64,000 nt of DNA, taken from Candidatus Buchananbacteria bacterium. Lineage in GTDB: Bacteria; Patescibacteriota; Patescibacteriia; 2-01-FULL-39-33. Within the stretch, counting starts at the first letter, position 1; every line of letters starts with the position of its first letter. Under the pieces are notes generated by a model, which was not told the origin of the DNA, made no database searches, and saw only the letters and a program-made list of their open reading frames with translations. The DNA lies in NCBI GenBank assembly GCA_041666505.1, contig JBAYGU010000001.1, positions 477 through 64,476 of the forward strand. The letters run 5' to 3'. The position numbers were made by a program, and so were the translations under genes. Positions 7,471 to 61,342 of this stretch are shown one piece after another.

Positions 7471-7508
7471 ACAAAAAAGCGACCCGTTCTGGCCGCTTCT
7501 TTTTTTTA
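7471..7508. terminator. Bidirectional hairpin terminator downstream of ileS
   Basis: AAGCGACC-cgttct-GGCCGCTT stem flanked by A-run and T-run. Confidence 0.45.
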
Positions 7509-10500
7509 AACTTTTACGATTTTTATCTTTACCTTCTCGCCGTTGATATTGACCGGCTTTTCATCGTTTTCCGCTTCAGCCACGCTATCGGCCAAAACCG
7601 ATTTAAGCAGCTCGGCGGATAATGCCGGATCAGCGAATACCTTACGAGCGATCTCACCGTCGCTATGCCAGCCGATCGTTATGCGGTCTTGGATCGTCAA
7701 CCCGGCATCCTTGCGCAAGCCGTTGATCGTCCTGACCAGTTCCCGCAGCACGCCTTCGGCTTTCAATTCCTCAGTCAATTCAGTATATAGCACGATACGT
7801 ATATTTTTTGAGAAAATAGTGTCTTTAATATTTTCACCACTCAAATTAATAGTATCATTAAATTCAAGGTGAATACTCCGTGGTTTTTCTGAAGATTTTA
7901 TTTCTAAATCTTTTTTAAATTCCACAACCTTAACATTTACTTCATCTGCAATAATTTTTGAATATATTTCATCCATAACCATGCCATAAACTTCAAGTTT
8001 ACTTAATGGCTGACGAATTTTAATCCCATTTTGGGCTCGCGAAGCCAATCCCAGCTCGACAATCTTCTTGACTTGCTCCATCTGCTCCAAAACATCAGTT
8101 CCAATTTTCCCCACTTTGGGCCACTTGGCTAGATGGACGGACTCCAATTCCCCACCAGCCCTCTTGTAAGCTTGCTCGGCGATAAACGGCGTAAATGGCG
8201 CCATGACTTTAGATAATTCCAAGATAGCGTGGCGGAAAGCTGCGATCGCCTGCTTCTTATCCGCTTCATCTTCACCCTTAAAACGATCACGGCTGCGCCT
8301 CAGCCACCAAGTCGAGAATTCATCGATGAATTCCTGGATCGGACGGACGGATCGCGGCAGATCATAAGCCTCCATCGACTTCGTCACCTCCGCGATTAAG
8401 GAATCCAATTTAGCCAGCAGCCACTGGTCCAGGACATTATCGAATTGGGAATTCTTCTCCCCCTTTACGAAAGGGGGAGCTAGAGGGGGTTTTGAAGTGT
8501 CTTCAGTCTTATATAGCTCGTAAAAACTGATAATATTATTGAGCAGCATCACGACTTTCTGCATCGCCTCCTTGACCCCGGCTTCGGAAAAATTCATGTT
8601 CTCGGCCTGCATGACGGGCGCCGATAATAAATAATACCTGAGTGCGTCAGCGCCGTATTTTTCCATGATGACTTCCGGCTCCGGATAGTTCTGCAATTTC
8701 TTCGCCATTTTTTTGCCGTCCTCGGCCAAAACGATGCCATTAACTATGACGTTGTCGAAGGCGCGGCTGCCCTTTATTGCCGAGGCGATCATATGCAGAT
8801 AATAGAACCAAGCGCGGGTCTGATCGACGCCCTCGGCGATGAATTTAGCCGGAAAACTGTGCTCAAATTCTTTCTTATTCTCGAAGGGGTAATGCTTCTG
8901 CGCATACGGCATCGAGCCGGAATCGAACCAGGTATCGAGCACATCGGGGATGCGCTTCATCTCTCCCTGGCACTTATGGCATTTGACCGTAACTTTATCG
9001 ATATGATGCTTATGCAAATCAGTGATTTTCTCGCCGCTGTCATGCTCCAATTCTGCGACAGAGCCATAGACCTTCATCTCGCCGCAGCCGCATTTCCAGA
9101 TCGGCATGACGCTCGCCCAGAATCTCTGGCGAGAAATTGACCAATCCCGCGCTCCCTCCAGCCATTTACCGAACCGGCCTTCCTTGATATGCTCTGGCGA
9201 CCAATTAATATCCTCGGCCAGCTTCATCGCCTTGTCTTTGACGTCCGTAACTTTGACGAACCAGGAAGACGTGGCGTAATTGATCAGCGGCGTGTCGCAG
9301 CGCCAGCAATGCGGATAGCTATGCTCGTATTTTTCCTTGGCGAACAGTAGCCCCTTGCCGGCCAGATATTTGATGATCATGACATCGGTTTTTTGCGTAT
9401 CTTCTGACGGCTTGACGTTCTCGCCGGCGAAGTCAGTTACTTCAGCGGTAAAATTGCCGCTCATGGTAACATTCTGGATGAAAGGCAAATTCCTTTCCTT
9501 GCCCAAGCGCATGTCATCTTCGCCAAAGGCCGGCGCGATATGTACCACGCCCGTACCATCCTCAGTAGTTACAAAATCTGCACTGACGATAGTATAAAGA
9601 TTGTCAATATTATTCAATTTTGCTTTAGCTTCAGCAGATTCATAATACGGAAATAATGGTCTGTATTTCTTTCCGACTAAAGATTGACCAGAAAATTCTT
9701 CAATAATTTTAAAGCCATATGGTTCTAATGCCATTAATCGATTATCTTTAATAAGAATAAATAAACGATCTTTTTTATCTGGTTCTTCGGTATCTAATTT
9801 AATTTTAAAATAAGTCTTTTCTGGATTAACAGCCAAAGCCACATTGGCCGGCAAAGTCCAAGGCGTGGTCGTCCAAGCCAAGACATAAGTGCCAGGTTCA
9901 TCAACTAATTCGAACTTGGCTGTCGCGCTCAGATCTTTGATATCGCGATAGCCTTCGCTGACTTCCTGCTGCGACAAAGTCGTCTCGCAGCGCGGGCAGA
10001 CATGCATTGATTTGTAGCCTTCATAAACCAAGTCCTTATCGTATAGTTCCTTGAACACCCACCAGACGGTTTCCATGTAATCCAGATCCATCGTCTTGTA
10101 TGGATTATCCATATCCGCCCAGCGGCCGAATCTGCCGATCGTAATTTTCCACTCCTCTGTATATTCCAAAACCTTACTGCGGCAAGCCTCATTGAATTTA
10201 TCCACGCCGTATTTGAGAATGTCCTTTTTCGATTTGAAGCCGAGCTGCTTCTCAATAATGTTCTCGATCGGCAAGCCGTGGCAATCCCAGCCCCAGCGGC
10301 GCGCGACATGGTAGCCCTTCATAGTCCAATAGCGTGGTACGACATCCTTCATGGCGCTGCCGACCAAGTGGCCATAATGCGGCGTGCCGGTGGCGAAAGG
10401 CGGACCGTCGTAAAAAGAATAAGCCGGACCGTTCTTGGTCTGCTCCAAAGACTGTTCAAAAATTTTGTTCGTTTTCCAAAATTCCTGGACTTCATGCTCA

Positions 10501-10574
10501 TTCTCGACTATGGAATTCAATTTTGTTTCTGTCATAATGTAAGAATAATACCAAAAAATACCTCTAAAAGTCAA
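7506..10574 (-). CDS. ileS: Isoleucyl-tRNA synthetase (long, type-2-like, 1022 aa)
   Basis: HYGH (HIGH motif), a KMAKK (KMSKS-like) motif and a zinc-finger CxxC pair. Carries a 13-aa repeat-encoded insert (see repeat at 8456-8494). Confidence 0.9.
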   Translation of the reverse strand: MTFRGIFWYYSYIMTETKLNSIVENEHEVQEFWKTNKIFEQSLEQTKNGPAYSFYDGPPFATGTPHYGHLVGSAMKDVVPRYWTMKGYHVARRWGWDCHGLPIENIIEKQLGFKSKKDILKYGVDKFNEACRSKVLEYTEEWKITIGRFGRWADMDNPYKTMDLDYMETVWWVFKELYDKDLVYEGYKSMHVCPRCETTLSQQEVSEGYRDIKDLSATAKFELVDEPGTYVLAWTTTPWTLPANVALAVNPEKTYFKIKLDTEEPDKKDRLFILIKDNRLMALEPYGFKIIEEFSGQSLVGKKYRPLFPYYESAEAKAKLNNIDNLYTIVSADFVTTEDGTGVVHIAPAFGEDDMRLGKERNLPFIQNVTMSGNFTAEVTDFAGENVKPSEDTQKTDVMIIKYLAGKGLLFAKEKYEHSYPHCWRCDTPLINYATSSWFVKVTDVKDKAMKLAEDINWSPEHIKEGRFGKWLEGARDWSISRQRFWASVMPIWKCGCGEMKVYGSVAELEHDSGEKITDLHKHHIDKVTVKCHKCQGEMKRIPDVLDTWFDSGSMPYAQKHYPFENKKEFEHSFPAKFIAEGVDQTRAWFYYLHMIASAIKGSRAFDNVIVNGIVLAEDGKKMAKKLQNYPEPEVIMEKYGADALRYYLLSAPVMQAENMNFSEAGVKEAMQKVVMLLNNIISFYELYKTEDTSKPPLAPPFVKGEKNSQFDNVLDQWLLAKLDSLIAEVTKSMEAYDLPRSVRPIQEFIDEFSTWWLRRSRDRFKGEDEADKKQAIAAFRHAILELSKVMAPFTPFIAEQAYKRAGGELESVHLAKWPKVGKIGTDVLEQMEQVKKIVELGLASRAQNGIKIRQPLSKLEVYGMVMDEIYSKIIADEVNVKVVEFKKDLEIKSSEKPRSIHLEFNDTINLSGENIKDTIFSKNIRIVLYTELTEELKAEGVLRELVRTINGLRKDAGLTIQDRITIGWHSDGEIARKVFADPALSAELLKSVLADSVAEAENDEKPVNINGEKVKIKIVKV
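8456..8494. repeat. Partial palindromic mini-element (RPE-like half copy) inside the ileS coding sequence
   Basis: CTCCCCCTTTACGAAAGGGGGAGCTAGAGGGGGTTTT. The same unit occurs at 32806, 40967 and 50111. It is translated in frame as KPPLAPPFVKGEK. Confidence 0.65.
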
Positions 10575-24990: not shown

Positions 24991-25137
24991 TTCTTTTCTC
25001 CTATTTCTCTGCTATTTTAGCAGTTTTTGACAGCTACCAACAGTTATCCACAATATTCTGACTAACATAAAATTATAGCAAATAATAACACTTTTGTCAA
25101 TGAATGATTAAATATTTACTAATTTTACGCAAAAAAA

Positions 25138-25164
25138 CCGCCGAATCGCTTCGGCGGCCATGAA
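25138..25164 (-). terminator. Rho-independent terminator (CCGCCGAA-tcgc-TTCGGCGG + T-run)
   Basis: Perfect 8-bp stem. An identical copy lies at 30073-30099. Confidence 0.6.
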
Positions 25165-30004: not shown

Positions 30005-30072
30005 ATATATGACATAAGTGTATCATATATGAAACATAATGTCAATACAATAAATATTAGCTGAATTTAGAC

Positions 30073-30099
30073 AAAAAAACCGCCGAATCGCTTCGGCGG
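30073..30099 (-). terminator. Terminator downstream of coaC (apparently identical hairpin to 25138-25164)
   Basis: CCGCCGAATCGCTTCGGCGG preceded by A7 (T-run on minus). Confidence 0.6.
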
Positions 30100-30119
30100 C
30101 AGATAACTGCTAACAACCT

Positions 30120-32364: not shown

Positions 32365-32472
32365 GGGGCTGTCCCAAAACTCCGTTTTTGGTGATTTTGC
32401 AAAAAATTTTTAGCTAATTTTAGCTTCTGTTTTTTGAAAAATTCCTGAAAAATCGAGTAATGGGACAACCCC
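32365..32472 (+). mobile_element. 108-bp MITE, copy 1 (TIR GGGGCTGTCCC / GGGACAACCCC), TSD AATT
   Basis: Appears identical (by eye) to the reverse complement of 61235-61342 and is flanked by an AATT direct duplication. Confidence 0.7.
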
Positions 32473-32795: not shown

Positions 32796-32805
32796 ATTAT
32801 TATTA

Positions 32806-32843
32806 AACCCCCTCTAACTCCCCCTTTCGTAAAGGTGGAGAAT
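32806..32843. repeat. RPE-like half element abutting the RNHCP start codon
   Basis: AAACCCCCTCTAACTCCCCCTTTCGTAAAGGTGGAG. On the minus strand its G-rich arm (GAGGGGG) sits 9-12 nt upstream of the RNHCP ATG as a Shine-Dalgarno. Confidence 0.6.
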
Positions 32844-33012
32844 AATTGTCTTGACAGTATAGCATATCTTTTGATATAATTTCAATACTAATTAAAAGAA
32901 ACCCGTAAAGACTCGAAAAAACGGGGCTCTGGAATGATTTAGGCCAGATAATAGCTATAAGTCAGGCTATCATCGCGTCCATTCAGGGTTAAAATATGGC
33001 TACAATACGAAT

Positions 33013-34308
33013 ATGATTTTTGGCAACAAAGATTCAATCATGGCAAAACTGCTCGACGAGAAGCAGTATTTTAATTTGCCCAAATTAGGCGACCTCGTCA
33101 AAGGCAAGGTAATTTCCATCGACAACAACGAGATCCACATCGACCTGAGCGGCATCGCTACGGGCGTGGTCCGCGGCAGAGAACGCTACGATGAAGGCGA
33201 CCAATACAAAAACTTGAAAACCGGCGACATAGTAGAAGCAACTGTCTTGGAATTAGAAAACGAAAATGGCGAAGTCGAATTATCATTCCAATATGCCGGC
33301 AAGCAGAAATCCTGGCAGACATTGATCGACTTAATGAAAGCCGGCTCGATCGTGCAAGCGGTTATCACCGAAGCCAATAAGGGCGGCTTGATGGTTAAAC
33401 TCGAAAGCGTTCCCGGCTTCTTGCCGGTATCGCAATTATCTCCGGAACATTATCCTCGCGTACCGGGCGGCGACAAGAATCGCATCTTTGAGATCTTAAA
33501 AACTTACATCGGCAAGAAATTCGACGTCAAAGTATTCGACGTCAATGAAGGCGAAGATAAATTAATCGTCTCGGAAAAAGCAGCTTGGGAAGAGACCCAG
33601 AAAGATGTCATCGGCAAATACAAAATCGGCATGTCCGTTGAGGGCTCAGTTACAGCAGTAACTGACTTCGGCGTCTTCGTCGAATTCGCCGACAAGCTCG
33701 AAGGCTTGATTCATATCTCGGAAATCGCCTGGCAGCGCATCGACAATCCGCATGACTTCGTAAAAGTCGGCGAAAAGATTAAAGCAGAAATCATCGGCAT
33801 CGAGAACTCCAAGATTTTCCTATCAATGAAAAAACTGGAGCATGATCCTTGGGTCGGCATCGAGAAGAAATTCAAGATCGGCGACAAGATTACCGGCGAG
33901 ATCATCAAAGTCAATCCGTTCGGCTTATTCGTCGAATTGGAAAAGAACATCCAGGGCTTGGCGCACGTCTCTCAATTATCAGACAAGGGCCAAGTCAATC
34001 CGGTCGATATCGCCAAGGTCGGCGAGAAAAAGGAATTCTATGTCGTATCTCTCGAACCGAAGAACCATCGCTTGGGACTGAGCTTAACCAAGCCGAAGAC
34101 TAAGGGCGAGCCGAAAACCGAAGCTGCTGAAAAAGCAGAAACTCCAGCTGAAGAAGCGAAGGAAGAAAATAAAGAAGAGAAGAAAAAACCGGCGAAGGAA
34201 AAGAAACCGAAGAAAGAAAAGAAGAGCGAAGAGCCGAAAGAAGAAATCACTTCGGAAAAAATCGCCGAGGAAATTGACGAAACCAAGGATATTCCTCTCT
34301 CAGAATAA
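33013..34308 (+). CDS. rpsA: 30S ribosomal protein S1 (four S1 domains) with Lys/Glu-rich C-terminal tail
   Basis: Repeated S1 OB-fold motifs (G..V.G.V....FG.FV) and a 70-aa KE-rich low-complexity tail. Confidence 0.85.
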   Translation: MIFGNKDSIMAKLLDEKQYFNLPKLGDLVKGKVISIDNNEIHIDLSGIATGVVRGRERYDEGDQYKNLKTGDIVEATVLELENENGEVELSFQYAGKQKSWQTLIDLMKAGSIVQAVITEANKGGLMVKLESVPGFLPVSQLSPEHYPRVPGGDKNRIFEILKTYIGKKFDVKVFDVNEGEDKLIVSEKAAWEETQKDVIGKYKIGMSVEGSVTAVTDFGVFVEFADKLEGLIHISEIAWQRIDNPHDFVKVGEKIKAEIIGIENSKIFLSMKKLEHDPWVGIEKKFKIGDKITGEIIKVNPFGLFVELEKNIQGLAHVSQLSDKGQVNPVDIAKVGEKKEFYVVSLEPKNHRLGLSLTKPKTKGEPKTEAAEKAETPAEEAKEENKEEKKKPAKEKKPKKEKKSEEPKEEITSEKIAEEIDETKDIPLSE

Positions 34309-38896: not shown

Positions 38897-39679
38897 TCAT
38901 TTTTTAACCGCGATGGCTAACAGATTATCGCCGGTCAAGATGGAAACCGATCCCCGGCTTTTGCTGGCATAACTCAAATAATCAATTGAGAACCCGGCTG
39001 ACGTCAGGAGATTTTTCATCTCTCTTTTCGTAAATGAATGTACGTATCTGACGTGCCACTCGCTTTGGCGCAAGTTGGCCTTCCAGGGCACGAAAGCGTC
39101 AGAAATATTGTAGACTCCGAGATTGAATTTTTCAACCAGATTGAACAGATATGGATAGTAGCGGAAATATTTGCGGCCATTAACATTCCACAAATTCCAA
39201 TTACTGATCACTAAGCGTCCGCCCGGCTTTAAGGCCTGATATAAATCTTTCAATATTTTTAATCTTAATGCGCGCGTAGGAATATGATGCAAGGCGGCAA
39301 TCATTAATTCGAGATCAAATTGATTCGAGGCCAAATGCAAATCAACCGCATCCGCAACTTCGAACTTGAAATCAGACTTATTCTTATACCGGTTTTGAGC
39401 GATTTCTATCAGCTCTTGGGAATTATCTAAGCCGAGATACTCGACTCCGGAATTATCAAAAAGTTGAGCCATGCGTCCGTTGCCGCAGCCAAGGTCTAAA
39501 ACATTGTCTCCCCTTTTTACATACTTGGCGAAATCTCCGAATCCCTCCCACCATTTGCCGCGGGTATCAGAAAAATCAGCTGCAATTTCATTATAAATCT
39601 TCGGCGTTTCCTCTAATATGCGATTGACATTTTGTCGTTTCATAAGTATAATAAGGTTTAAACTATGCCAGAAATCCAT
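38897..39679 (-). CDS. Class I SAM-dependent methyltransferase
   Basis: VLDLGCGNGRMAQ motif I. Confidence 0.7.
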   Translation of the reverse strand: MDFWHSLNLIILMKRQNVNRILEETPKIYNEIAADFSDTRGKWWEGFGDFAKYVKRGDNVLDLGCGNGRMAQLFDNSGVEYLGLDNSQELIEIAQNRYKNKSDFKFEVADAVDLHLASNQFDLELMIAALHHIPTRALRLKILKDLYQALKPGGRLVISNWNLWNVNGRKYFRYYPYLFNLVEKFNLGVYNISDAFVPWKANLRQSEWHVRYVHSFTKREMKNLLTSAGFSIDYLSYASKSRGSVSILTGDNLLAIAVKK

Positions 39680-41338
39680 TCACAAATCATTCTAGACATC
39701 ATCAAAGGCAAGCCGCAAAGCGATGCTGATCTTTTTAATATTGTCAGAAAATCCACCGCTGGCCTCAAAATGGCTCCGCCGCCCAAGGCCGTACTGTTAA
39801 AAGCTTACCATAAACTGGCAAAAAGTGGAAAAATAAAATCGAACACAAATATTGCTCAATTACTAACTAAGCGAGCCGTGCGTACTCTTTCCGGCGTAGC
39901 AGTTATTTCTGTCTTAACCAAACCGACAACTTGCCCCGGAAACTGCCTTTTCTGCCCGACCGAGAAAAATATGCCTAAATCATACCTTTCCAACGAACCG
40001 GCGGTCATGCGGGCTATTTTAAACGATTTTGACCCCTTCAGACAGGTCGAAATGCGCCTTAAAGCGCTTAAAGCCAATGGCCACTCGGTAGACAAGATCG
40101 AGCTGATCGTCATGGGCGGCACCTGGAGCTACCATACACCAAAATACCAATCCTGGTTCATCAAACGTTGCTTCGAAGCAGTCAACGGCAAAGAAGCCAA
40201 AACTTTGGCGGAAGCACAGAAAAAAAATGAATCAAGTAAGCACCGCGTCATCGGCCTAACTCTAGAAACCCGACCAGATTATATCGACGAAGAAGAAGTG
40301 AAGCGACTAAGAAATCTTGGCTGCACCCGGGTAGAATTAGGCATCCAGCATATTGACGACAAGATATTGAGATTGAATCGCCGCGGCCACAACACCAAAC
40401 AAAGTATCAATGCTATCAAGTTACTCAAGAATGCCGGTTTTAAAATCAATCTTCATCTGATGCCGAATTTATACGGCTCGACGCCAGCCAAAGATTTAGC
40501 AATGTTTAAAAAAATCTATACTGACGGCAATTACATGCCGGATATGGTCAAAATCTACCCCTGTGTCGTCAATGAGCATGCCGATTTATACAAATTATAT
40601 AAGCAGAAAAAATATAAGCCCTACACGCAAAAGCAATTGACTGATTTGATAGTCAAAATAAAAAAAATCACTCCGCCCTGGGTGCGCATCGCCCGATTGA
40701 TCCGCGATATTCCCGAGGAATCGATTGTCGCCGGCAACAAGACGACTAATCTGCGGCAGCTAATAGCGCTCACCGCATCTAAGGATGGCTGGAGCTGCAA
40801 GTGCATCAGATGCAGAGAAGTCGGAAGATCACATAACATGGAACATGGAACATTAAATGCAAAATTAGTCAGTAGAAAATATCAAGCAAATGGCGGTACG
40901 GAATATTTTTTAAGTTATGAATCGCCCGACAAAAAAATTCTTTATGCCTTCTTGAGGCTTCGGATCAAACCCCCTCTAACTCCCCCTTTCGTAAAGGGGG
41001 AGAAAAACTTCCTAACATCAATTCAGCAAGGGAACGATTCCTCCCCTTTACGAAAGGGGAGGCTAGGAGGGGTTTATCTGCCTGAACTAAATGGAGCAGC
41101 CTTGATCCGTGAGCTGCATACTTATGGTCAGGCGACGGAAATCGGCTCTAAGGGCAAAGTCCAGCACCTCGGACTGGGACAAAGACTACTTTCGGAAGCA
41201 GAAAAAATCACCCAGCAAAATAACTTGAATAAAATTGCTGTCATTTCCGGCATCGGCGTCCGCAGTTATTACAAGAAATTCGGCTATAAACTCGAAGGGA
41301 CTTATATGGTGAAAAATTTAACAAAAAAGACAAAATAA
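39665..41338 (+). CDS. elp3: Elp3-like radical-SAM / GNAT acetyltransferase (tRNA wobble-uridine modification family)
   Basis: CPGNCLFCP radical-SAM cysteine triad and a C-terminal GNAT (QHLGLGQRLL). Carries a ~37-aa repeat-encoded insert. Confidence 0.8.
   Translation: MPEIHSQIILDIIKGKPQSDADLFNIVRKSTAGLKMAPPPKAVLLKAYHKLAKSGKIKSNTNIAQLLTKRAVRTLSGVAVISVLTKPTTCPGNCLFCPTEKNMPKSYLSNEPAVMRAILNDFDPFRQVEMRLKALKANGHSVDKIELIVMGGTWSYHTPKYQSWFIKRCFEAVNGKEAKTLAEAQKKNESSKHRVIGLTLETRPDYIDEEEVKRLRNLGCTRVELGIQHIDDKILRLNRRGHNTKQSINAIKLLKNAGFKINLHLMPNLYGSTPAKDLAMFKKIYTDGNYMPDMVKIYPCVVNEHADLYKLYKQKKYKPYTQKQLTDLIVKIKKITPPWVRIARLIRDIPEESIVAGNKTTNLRQLIALTASKDGWSCKCIRCREVGRSHNMEHGTLNAKLVSRKYQANGGTEYFLSYESPDKKILYAFLRLRIKPPLTPPFVKGEKNFLTSIQQGNDSSPLRKGRLGGVYLPELNGAALIRELHTYGQATEIGSKGKVQHLGLGQRLLSEAEKITQQNNLNKIAVISGIGVRSYYKKFGYKLEGTYMVKNLTKKTK
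40967..41075. mobile_element. Full-length ~109-bp palindromic mini-element (RPE-like) inserted in-frame in the elp3 GNAT domain
   Basis: Terminal inverted repeats AAACCCCCTCTAAC / GCTAGGAGGGGTTT and two internal stems CTCCCCCTTTCGTAAAGGGGGAG / CCTCCCCTTTACGAAAGGGGAGG. The ORF stays open across it. Confidence 0.7.
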
Positions 41339-50110: not shown

Positions 50111-50224
50111 CCCTCCCCTTTTTTCAAAGGGGAGGCTAGGAGGGGTTTTGTTGGAATTAATTAAACCCCCTTTCGATGCTCCTTATGGTCGCATCCGAAT
50201 CCCCCTTTGAAAAAGGTGGAGAAT
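50111..50224. repeat. Two tandem partial RPE-like units in the intergenic region upstream of the PGI/PMI gene
   Basis: CCTCCCCTTTTTTCAAAGGGGAGGCTAGGAGGGGTTTT (50111-50149), followed by AAACCCCC...CCCCCTTTGAAAAAGGTGGAGAATAAT (50164-50224). Confidence 0.6.
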
Positions 50225-61234: not shown

Positions 61235-61342
61235 GGGGTTGTCCCATTACTCGATTTTTCAGGAATTTTTCAAAAAACAGAAGCTAAAATTAGCTAAAAA
61301 TTTTTTGCAAAATCACCAAAAACGGAGTTTTGGGACAGCCCC
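61235..61342 (-). mobile_element. 108-bp MITE, copy 2 (inverted), TSD GTGG, inserted in the loop of a pre-existing terminator
   Basis: Reverse complement appears identical (by eye) to 32365-32472. Flanked by GTGG direct repeats inside the palindromic CAGTCTGCC...GGCGGACTG + T7 terminator. Confidence 0.7.

Follow-up and report, generated by a model that had tools for sequence, protein, structure and literature searches.

How does a copy of a short dispersed repeat come to be read as protein inside an essential enzyme? The question is raised by the isoleucyl-tRNA synthetase gene (ileS) in a 64,000-nucleotide stretch of contig JBAYGU010000001.1 from Candidatus Buchananbacteria (Patescibacteria), which we call the window; there, a repeat copy had been predicted to lie in frame and to yield the same peptide as a second copy in an Elp3-like gene. 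Our analysis leads us to favor, at a probability of about 80%, the reading that a 36-nt dispersed unit, with the design of an intrastrand triplex motif, inserted into a part of ileS that encodes a loop, is translated there, and is tolerated.

The host gene (7506..10535, minus strand) encodes a type-2 isoleucyl-tRNA synthetase (IleRS) of 1009 amino acids, and its open frame extends upstream to a TTG codon at 10574 (ORF 7506..10574, minus strand, 1022 amino acids). The window contig is matched by a JGI metagenome contig at 100% identity over 10.5 kb, although the independence of that contig from the window's own assembly is not established; the public gene calls on it assign the Pfam domains tRNA-synt_1, Anticodon_1, and DUF5915 to the protein. 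IleRS chains in the PDB are matched at E values of about 1e-230, and the nearest fold to an AlphaFold2 model is the type-2 IleRS of Priestia megaterium (8c8v; TM 0.77). The HIGH and KMSKS regions are invariant alignment columns that the window IleRS shares. Because these residues are intact, ileS looks functional, and the enzyme is presumably active with its insert.

Window positions 8457-8493 (plus strand) read CTCCCCCTTTACGAAAGGGGGAGCTAGAGGGGGTTTT, also given as ctccccctttacgaaagggggagctagagggggtttt; the coordinates first proposed, 8456-8494, were one base too wide at either end. The prediction that the repeat is read in frame proved right, in that the minus-strand ORF contains the quoted peptide exactly. 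The IleRS translation around it is ...FYELYKTEDTSKPPLAPPFVKGEKNSQFDNVLDQWLLAKL... (also ...YKTEDTSKPPLAPPFVKGEKNSQFDNVLDQW...), within which the repeat itself is SKPPLAPPFVKGEKNS, at residues 694-706 of the 1022-residue ORF or 681-693 counted from the methionine of the public call (1009 residues). The unit proper is 36 nt long (8457..8492, minus strand), is translated as K-P-P-L-A-P-P-F-V-K-G-E, and reads AAA-CCCCCTC-TAG-CTCCCCC-TTTCGTAAA-GGGGGAG on the coding strand; stretches of IleRS that span the insert are KPPLAPPFVKGEK and TEDTSKPPLAPPFVKGEKNSQFDNVLDQW.

Alignment of IleRS orthologs, proposed as a check along with the original prediction, identifies the peptide as an insertion that is absent from the nearest homologs. 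We aligned 60 of the 120 best homologs and measured loop lengths over 112 homologs. The insert follows the end of a conserved helix (NNIxSFYxLY) and precedes the motif NxLDxWLxAKL. In five homologs at 71-74% identity (P0002, P0004, P0005, P0007, and P0008), this loop is exactly 12 amino acids, or 36 nt, shorter; relative to them, the gain of 36 nt in the window gene corresponds to AAACCCCCTCTAGCTCCCCCTTTCGTAAAGGGGGAG, and the 12 extra residues of its product are KPPLAPPFVKGE. P0004, together with P0003, belongs to a pair of syntenic orthologs that share with the window the order ArgRS, response regulator, Fer4, IleRS, ..., GDSL lipase, acyltransferase, DsbA, and POR. A codon-level alignment finds both of these without the insert, and their 23-kb loci hold no triplex-type units, compared with six in the window. 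Conservation of the peptide in the IleRS of distant lineages, an outcome that would have spoken for a native feature, was not seen: it is absent from 119 homologs.

The loop that received the unit is variable in length. As delimited here, it has a modal length of 14 amino acids and ranges from 13 to 43 among the 112 homologs, the window value of 26 being 14 plus 12. In the AlphaFold2 model (mean pLDDT 80.6), residues 676-700 form a coil between helices 651-675 and 701-722, and pLDDT falls below 50 at residues 680-696, spanning the insert. The structural modeling suggested at the outset therefore places the insert within a low-confidence coil, and the model predicts that it occupies a floppy inter-helix loop of the anticodon-binding domain. 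The low-pLDDT coil, the spread of loop lengths, and the lengthening of an Elp3 loop as well (see below) all agree with the earlier proposal that the element is tolerated in loops.

The ileS copy has close relatives within the window. At up to three mismatches, the 23-nt hairpin core has five matches there, as against 0 expected (100 shuffles), and over 43-46 nt the ileS unit shows 91-93% complementarity to two other copies, at 32805-32847 and 40967-41012. The total is five sites comprising six units, 80-93% alike. Three of the six are in genes (ileS and Elp3) and three are intergenic, which would amount to intergenic enrichment if the window is mostly coding, as expected of compact genomes.

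The Elp3-like gene (39665..41338, plus strand) encodes a radical-SAM/GNAT tRNA-modification protein with Radical_SAM and Radical_SAM_C domains, whose homologs are named Elp3. Its ORF reads ...LRLRIKPPLTPPFVKGEKNFLTSIQQGNDSSPLRKGRLGGVYLPEL, in which IKPPLTPPFVKGEKNF matches the IleRS peptide; the copy in ileS starts at codon phase 0, as does the left copy in Elp3. The Elp3 copies form an inverted pair. The left unit (40967..41002, plus strand) is read as KPPLTPPFVKGE, and the right unit (41040..41075, plus strand), a variant with arms CCTCCCC/GGGGAGG/GGAGGGG whose G-rich strand is coding, is read as SSPLRKGRLGGV. The ileS copy had been described as a half element; it is a real copy of the repeat, but it is better read as the basic unit, the "full element" of Elp3 being an inverted pair of such units. 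The affected Elp3 loop (LRLRIxxxxKNFLPEL) has 7-8 amino acids in 70 homologs and is about 30 amino acids longer in the window. The nearest Elp3 homolog (P0121, L124 236-1900, 73% identity) carries a unit pair where the window gene does, with other arm sequences, CCCCGCCC-TAA-CCCTCCCC...GGGGAGGG and CTCCCTC...GAGGGAG-TTA-GAGGGAG. Should these pairs be orthologous, their differences would be compensatory across the arms; independent insertion fits equally well. The window Elp3 itself has no 100% match in a collection of 5.8 billion proteins, where the best match is 73% and where the IleRS is present, and its 41-amino-acid insert has no word triplet in common with any entry of that collection. 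The gene may be called differently, or left uncalled, in the public annotation of the contig.

The intergenic copies vary more in their state. A single unit at 32805..32840 (plus strand, C-rich strand) has one stem mismatch (GGTGGAG). Another, at 50112..50148 (plus strand, G-rich strand), has the loop TTTTTTCAAA; at 50163..50221 (plus strand) lies the degenerate partner of this intergenic pair, interrupted or decayed (AAACCCCC ... TCCCCCTTTGAAAAAGGTGGAG). Beginning 11 nt past the unit at 32805-32840 is a sigma-70-like promoter that scores 12/12 (TTGACA, 18 nt, TG-TATAAT; 32851-32880, plus strand) and points to a gene starting at 33013. Perhaps the unit inserted into this promoter region, or adds to it.

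What distinguishes the unit from a simple hairpin is a third arm. On the C-rich strand, the aligned window units read AAA-CCCCCTC-TA(A/G)-CTCCCCC-TTTCGTAAA-GGGGGAG, with a second variant, CCCCTCC-TAG-CCTCCCC-...-GGGGAGG, in which all three 7-nt blocks are altered together; the first block of this strand can form Watson-Crick pairs with neither of the other two. On the G-rich strand the order is pyrimidine arm, loop, purine arm, a 3-nt loop (CTA or TTA), and a mirror purine arm. In the ileS copy, on the plus strand, the pyrimidine arm CTCCCCC (8457..8463) pairs with the purine arm GGGGGAG (8473..8479), the second loop is CTA (8480..8482; TTA in the copies at 32805 and 40967), and the third arm, GAGGGGG (8483..8489), mirrors the purine arm exactly, at 7/7 positions. 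The same exact mirror is present in every intact window unit, and the arms covary: CTCCCCC/GGGGGAG/GAGGGGG in one set, CCTCCCC/GGGGAGG/GGAGGGG in the other.

This mirror arrangement on the G-rich strand suits an intramolecular triplex built from reverse-Hoogsteen G·G-C and A·A-T triads. Six of the former and one of the latter are possible in the ileS unit, for which the candidate triplex-forming strand is 5'-CTCCCCCTTTACGAAAGGGGGAGCTAGAGGGGG-3', and the mirror is also perfect at 40967, 41040, and 50112. Counting the TTT/AAA extension, the ileS stem is 10 bp; the first loop is then 3 nt (ACG), being 9 nt when measured between the 7-nt triplex blocks, and the second loop is 3 nt. With the extension counted as stem, the loops fall within the range of class II motifs (first loop 1-6 nt, second about 3 nt), and as in such motifs, a pyrimidine block, its complementary purine block, and a third, G-rich block follow one another on one strand. 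The predicted energy of the ileS hairpin is -17.7 kcal/mol as RNA (z = -2.7) and -11 kcal/mol as DNA, the latter for Watson-Crick folding. The C-rich strand is the sense of the ileS mRNA, and the G-rich strand is the template.

We asked how general the third arm is by scanning two larger collections. In genomes, the pattern AAACCCCYYCTARCYYCCCCTTT, in which two YY positions were left free, matched 37 loci in at least 10 phyla; the phyla and lineages represented include Ignavibacteria, Nitrospirae, Poribacteria, Planctomycetes, cyanobacteria, several Patescibacteria lineages, Bacteroidetes, and Proteobacteria. Mirror symmetry at the free YY positions was present in 36/37 loci, and nearly all of the matches had a free loop followed by the matching purine arm. 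In metagenomes, a pattern anchored on the hairpin alone (CYYCCCCTTTCGTAAAGGGGRRG) returned 81 loci with 67 distinct hairpins. An adjacent mirror third arm, scored at 6/7 or better, accompanied 55/67 of these hairpins, compared with 2/64 in flanks displaced by 40 nt. The constraint that keeps three arms matched most likely acts on DNA structure rather than on the peptide, and a triplex may form on the G-rich DNA strand.

Other structural readings of the unit were considered. A G-quadruplex or i-motif built on its G and C runs fails to explain a single A/T position that tracks through all three arms. A pyrimidine-motif triplex on the C-rich strand was made secondary, as variants with an A in the C-rich arm fit reverse-Hoogsteen T·A-T triads on the G-rich strand; this preference for the purine motif agrees with a published catalog of triplex motifs (PMC4666352; see below). 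A known RNA or riboswitch was rejected for a unit of just 36 nt that occurs in coding and noncoding contexts and in both orientations.

The loop occupied in the window IleRS is occupied in other lineages too. In P0032 (L039) it holds a different unit, ACCCCCTC-TCAT-TCTCCCCC-TTCGAA-GGGGGAGA, and in P0037 (L123) a unit of opposite orientation, CCCCCTCC-TTACGAA-GGAGGGGG-TTA-GGGGGAGG. Three IleRS lineages therefore bear different units in one loop. A separate observation concerns the same loop in seven IleRS proteins from other Patescibacteria lineages (P0033, P0058, P0048, P0057, P0034, P0084, and P0089), which contain other repeat-like peptides, including ...KERDSSTTSGLPDSGRNDS..., VILSVAKDPLS..RDSSVATLPQNDR, VIPAKAGIQ, and SHPELVSGS; further peptides of this kind are QIQNYKLQINLKFKIQNSKF, TLPAGRQESKV, and ISNFKFQISNF. 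Judged from the peptides alone, these look like translations of different dispersed hairpin repeats, and the loop seems to collect many repeat families.

Units are also found in unrelated genes elsewhere, in more than one reading frame. The unit is stop-free in four of six frames, and all four are used in different genes. One frame, KPPLxPPFVKGE, is read in ileS, in Elp3, in a Dus gene with the identical IKPPLAPPFVKGEKNS, and in FolD; TPSNSPFRKGGE is read at the N terminus of a Dus protein and in LeuRS, PolA, and SpoIIE; SPLRKGRLGGV in the Elp3 right unit, MurD, and PolA; and LPFTKGE.. in UvrD. Glycosyltransferases, PurL, a type ISP restriction enzyme, and ThrRS carry units as well. Host genes of the fetched loci were confirmed by Pfam; copies were classed as intragenic when they lay in a continuous open frame, so that their open frames are not an independent test of read-through. 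The Dus gene that reads IKPPLAPPFVKGEKNS comes from another metagenome and is identical to the ileS copy over 36+ nt and in its peptide. In the LeuRS of L050, a unit pair lies just upstream of the Anticodon_1 match, at what looks by sequence like the equivalent of the IleRS loop. Because four frames are open and all are in use, the peptide is most likely a tolerated by-product. The pattern points to a filter whereby the only copies that survive in genes are those that are a multiple of three in length, free of stops, and in length-tolerant loops.

Two related Dus genes (L005 5631-6746 and L084 9693-10862) both have inserts after ...VSVKLRTSI. In one gene the insert consists of a triplex-type pair (IKPPLAPPFVKGEKNSGRNFPPLYERGGQEGF), and in the other of a repeat-like stretch with no relation to it (...NKRDSSASLITASVGMTTG...); the L005 gene has an additional unit at its N terminus.

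Among described repeats, the closest in design comes from the work of Holder et al. (NAR 2015, PMC4666352), who cataloged intrastrand triplex motifs across prokaryotes (5246 genomes and plasmids). According to that report, the motif TMECO (BoxC) has the form 5'-CCCTCNCCC N3-6 GGGNGAGGG N3 GGGNGAGGG, a class II purine-motif triplex whose stability in vitro was studied by CD and NMR spectroscopy and found to be good. Either T-T-A or C-C-G makes up the second loop (type A being T-T-A); E. coli MG1655 has 23 copies, which are single or arranged as five inverted pairs. The same text describes TMECO as "always located intergenically" in E. coli and as not found associated with transposons, phages, or plasmids, and records G/C-rich motifs of its kind as very abundant in Microcystis, Nostoc, and Anabaena (PMC4666352). 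The window unit resembles TMECO in its consecutive pyrimidine arm, complementary purine arm, and second G-rich arm after a 3-nt turn; in the TTA turn; in G/C-rich arms with a single A/T position; in conserved stems around a free first loop; and in being a short dispersed multicopy element, single or in inverted pairs, without an associated transposase (none was identified here, where no systematic search was made). It differs in its 7-nt arms, CTCCCCC/CCTCCCC, as compared with the 9-nt CCCTCNCCC; in its host, a Patescibacteria (Buchananbacteria) metagenome-assembled genome and not a proteobacterium; in having 3/6 units in frame within ileS and Elp3, whereas TMECO is reported to be exclusively intergenic; and in that its triplex is a prediction from sequence, whereas that of TMECO is reported from in vitro work. 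The TMECO consensus itself has 0 matches in the window. By this comparison, we place the window unit in the same class as TMECO/BoxC without equating it with BoxC. The "PIT elements" of Hoyne and Maher (2000) are reportedly of the same intrastrand-triplex-motif class as BoxC.

The unit's position in genes has a different parallel. Rickettsia palindromic elements (RPEs; Ogata et al. 2000 Science; 2002 Genome Res) are described, in a later account (PMC10969869), as Rickettsia-specific families of about 100-150 bp, whose host proteins are thought to keep their function because the fold can accommodate the inserts. As with the window unit, these are palindromic repeats in frame in unrelated housekeeping genes, translated as an extra peptide. 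RPEs, however, encode a longer conserved peptide, whereas the window unit measures 36 nt, or about 110 nt when paired, and is of triplex-motif design; the window host is a free-living or episymbiotic member of a candidate phylum, and relatives of the unit are spread across many phyla. The two are set apart on the basis of size and host, not of sequence comparison with RPE families. REP/REPIN sequences are extragenic, have a conserved 5' tetranucleotide, depend on RAYT (a Y1 transposase), and lack a mirror third arm. Like them, the window units are GC-rich hairpins of 20-40 nt that are dispersed through the genome as singlets and inverted doublets; unlike them, 3/6 window units are not extragenic, and no RAYT was identified in the window, which was not exhaustively searched for one. 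Finally, MITEs (miniature transposable elements with inverted repeats), among them ERIC, BOX, and Anabaena and Coxiella elements, have in-frame intragenic copies on record in the same source (PMC10969869). The Elp3 inverted pair resembles a small element with terminal inverted repeats, but no target-site duplication or parent insertion sequence was seen in this comparison, and a single 36-nt unit is below MITE size.

The mechanism that we propose is that a single 36-nt unit, spread by some factor acting in trans, inserted into ileS where the gene encodes a variable loop between two helices of the anticodon-binding domain. Synthesis of the enzyme would continue, with 12 extra residues, and the copy would survive in ileS because it is 3n nucleotides long, has four of six frames stop-free, and sits in a loop that tolerates extra length. 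The peptide would then be a by-product comparable to those of Rickettsia palindromic elements.

Several points weigh against this proposal. It presumes both read-through translation of the insert and mobility. The original prediction called the element mobile, and that much is suggested by its presence and absence among orthologs and by the near-identical dispersed copies; no transposase, target-site duplication, or mechanism came to light. More specifically, neither a target-site duplication nor a common target sequence is evident at the window copies in ileS, in Elp3, or between genes, and no transposase or RAYT was identified in the window, where neither was searched for systematically. Holder et al. 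likewise report TMECO to be unlinked to mobile elements (PMC4666352). The recurrent hits on one loop could be due to targeting instead of a selective filter. From copy to copy, similar A-rich bases (GAGAAGAAYTC) follow the unit and look like part of the element; the true unit may therefore be longer than 36 nt, in which case the event was an insertion together with a small deletion. Finally, the same authors hold that purine-motif triplexes are impossible in RNA and that the C-rich strand, which is here the sense of the ileS mRNA, needs acidic pH (PMC4666352), so that any triplex would be a property of the G-rich strand at the level of DNA. As for a vector, we rejected a phage or virus: the unit has no match in 50,697 phage records, and the 23-nt pattern has none in IMG/VR.

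Of the four rival explanations that we weighed, none is favored. The one we take most seriously, although we consider it unlikely, is that the insert has been co-opted, either because a hairpin in the mRNA makes ribosomes pause between folding units or regulates ileS expression or because a Pro/Gly/Lys-rich peptide adds a function such as binding of tRNA or a partner. The strength of the mRNA hairpin (-17.7 kcal/mol, z = -2.7) speaks for it, as do the occupation of one loop by such units in three IleRS lineages, the similarly placed pair in LeuRS, and the diverged pair in P0121 Elp3, which is at the same site as in the window and still has matched arms. However, with four open frames and both orientations in use across genes, no particular peptide appears to be selected; unrelated repeat-derived peptides sit in the same IleRS loop in other lineages, the nearest orthologs manage without any insert, and the model gives the insert no ordered structure. 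A local origin, by slippage or template switching on a C-rich stretch already present, with the likeness to other copies arising by structural convergence, seems to us very unlikely. Very similar motifs with free loop sequences do occur in many phyla, which is easier to understand if the design is reinvented or strongly constrained, and no mobility machinery was found in the window, which was not systematically searched for a transposase or RAYT. Against this, the ileS copy is 91-93% identical over 43-46 nt to other copies, with loop, turn, and A-rich flank included; the orthologous loops contain no C-rich precursor; and the Dus gene of another metagenome has the same 36+ nt and the same peptide.

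The remaining two possibilities concern whether the insert reaches the protein and whether it is an insert at all. Translational bypassing is exemplified by the GC-rich hairpin "byp" elements of Magnusiomyces mitochondria and by T4 gene 60, and a stable hairpin within a coding sequence would be in keeping with bypassing or with removal of the insert from the mRNA. Yet the insert measures exactly 36 nt, contains no stop, and keeps the phase; every intragenic copy lies in a continuous open frame, a point that carries no independent weight given that this defined the class; no matching take-off and landing codons were noticed, in work that included no search aimed at them; and read-through is the simpler explanation. 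We regard an untranslated insert as highly improbable. Still less probable is that the peptide is a native, conserved feature of IleRS or an artifact of assembly. All of the data do come from metagenome assemblies, which leaves some room for an artifact, and nothing was found in favor of conservation. Against this possibility stand the absence of the peptide from 119 homologs, the 100% identical JGI contig over 10.5 kb, whose independence is not established, and the analogous in-frame units in many unrelated assemblies. We return to insertion of a translated and tolerated triplex-design unit as the best account of the ileS locus.

To our knowledge, Rickettsia is the main group in which housekeeping genes are known to carry translated "selfish" palindromes. 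The present data extend them to Patescibacteria, and the DNA scans add other phyla. They also connect research on non-B DNA repeats with research on palindromes that encode protein, because the unit has the BoxC/TMECO design, whose describers encountered it in intergenic DNA only. Palindromic repeats that lie in frame in housekeeping genes (RPEs) and the design of the repeat (PMC4666352) are already known. What appears to be new is a BoxC-like triplex-motif unit translated in essential genes, Patescibacteria as its host, and such units striking the same loops across lineages. No new mechanism is revealed. The finding does account for many odd Pro/Gly-rich loop insertions in metagenomic proteins (PPLxPPFVKGE, SPLRKGRLGGV, TPSNSPFRKGGE), and it flags insertion-tolerant loops in aminoacyl-tRNA synthetases, Elp3, PolA, and Dus.

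A broader interpretation, which we consider doubtful, is that BoxC-like triplex-motif repeats are a pan-bacterial class that routinely enters coding sequence in frame and repeatedly strikes the same essential-enzyme loops through structure-directed targeting or selection on DNA structure, and not through a mere filter of permissive sites. The loops would be the anticodon-domain loop of IleRS, with the LeuRS pair similarly placed, and those of Elp3, PolA, and Dus, in Patescibacteria and several other uncultivated lineages. The P0121 Elp3 pair, diverged yet matched three ways, hints at a structure-directed process. If this were true, the motifs would be a general source, not described to date, of variation in loop length in compact genomes.

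Some aminoacyl-tRNA synthetases of Patescibacteria have gained whole extra domains. An IleRS clade of ~1150-1230 amino acids, with members among P0021, P0030-P0032, P0034, P0040, P0041, and P0044, bears a His_Phos_1 (PF00300) domain, and in the LeuRS at L050 (9222-12239, minus strand), a NUDIX domain is inserted after the editing domain.

The window also contains repeats of other kinds. An AT-rich element of 108 nt, whose terminal inverted repeats are 12 nt long (GGGGCTGTCCCA / TGGGACAACCCC), is present at 32365-32472 and 61235-61342. The two copies are 100% identical, in opposite orientation, both intergenic, and flanked by apparent duplications of 4-5 nt (AATT; ACGG), and the second (61235-61342) lies within a terminator-like hairpin. 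From its sequence, this element seems to be a true MITE that has no relation to the triplex-type unit. At the gathering threshold, no Rfam family matched anywhere in the window; around the intergenic copy of the triplex-type unit, Rfam gave only chance long-hairpin miRNA matches, all of them on the separate 108-nt element, and ARAGORN found no tRNA. A 50-nt direct repeat at 25109-25158 and 30051-30100 (88% identity), ending in AAAAAAACCGCCGAATCGCTTCGGCGGC, looks like a terminator-type hairpin common to the 3' sides of two genes.

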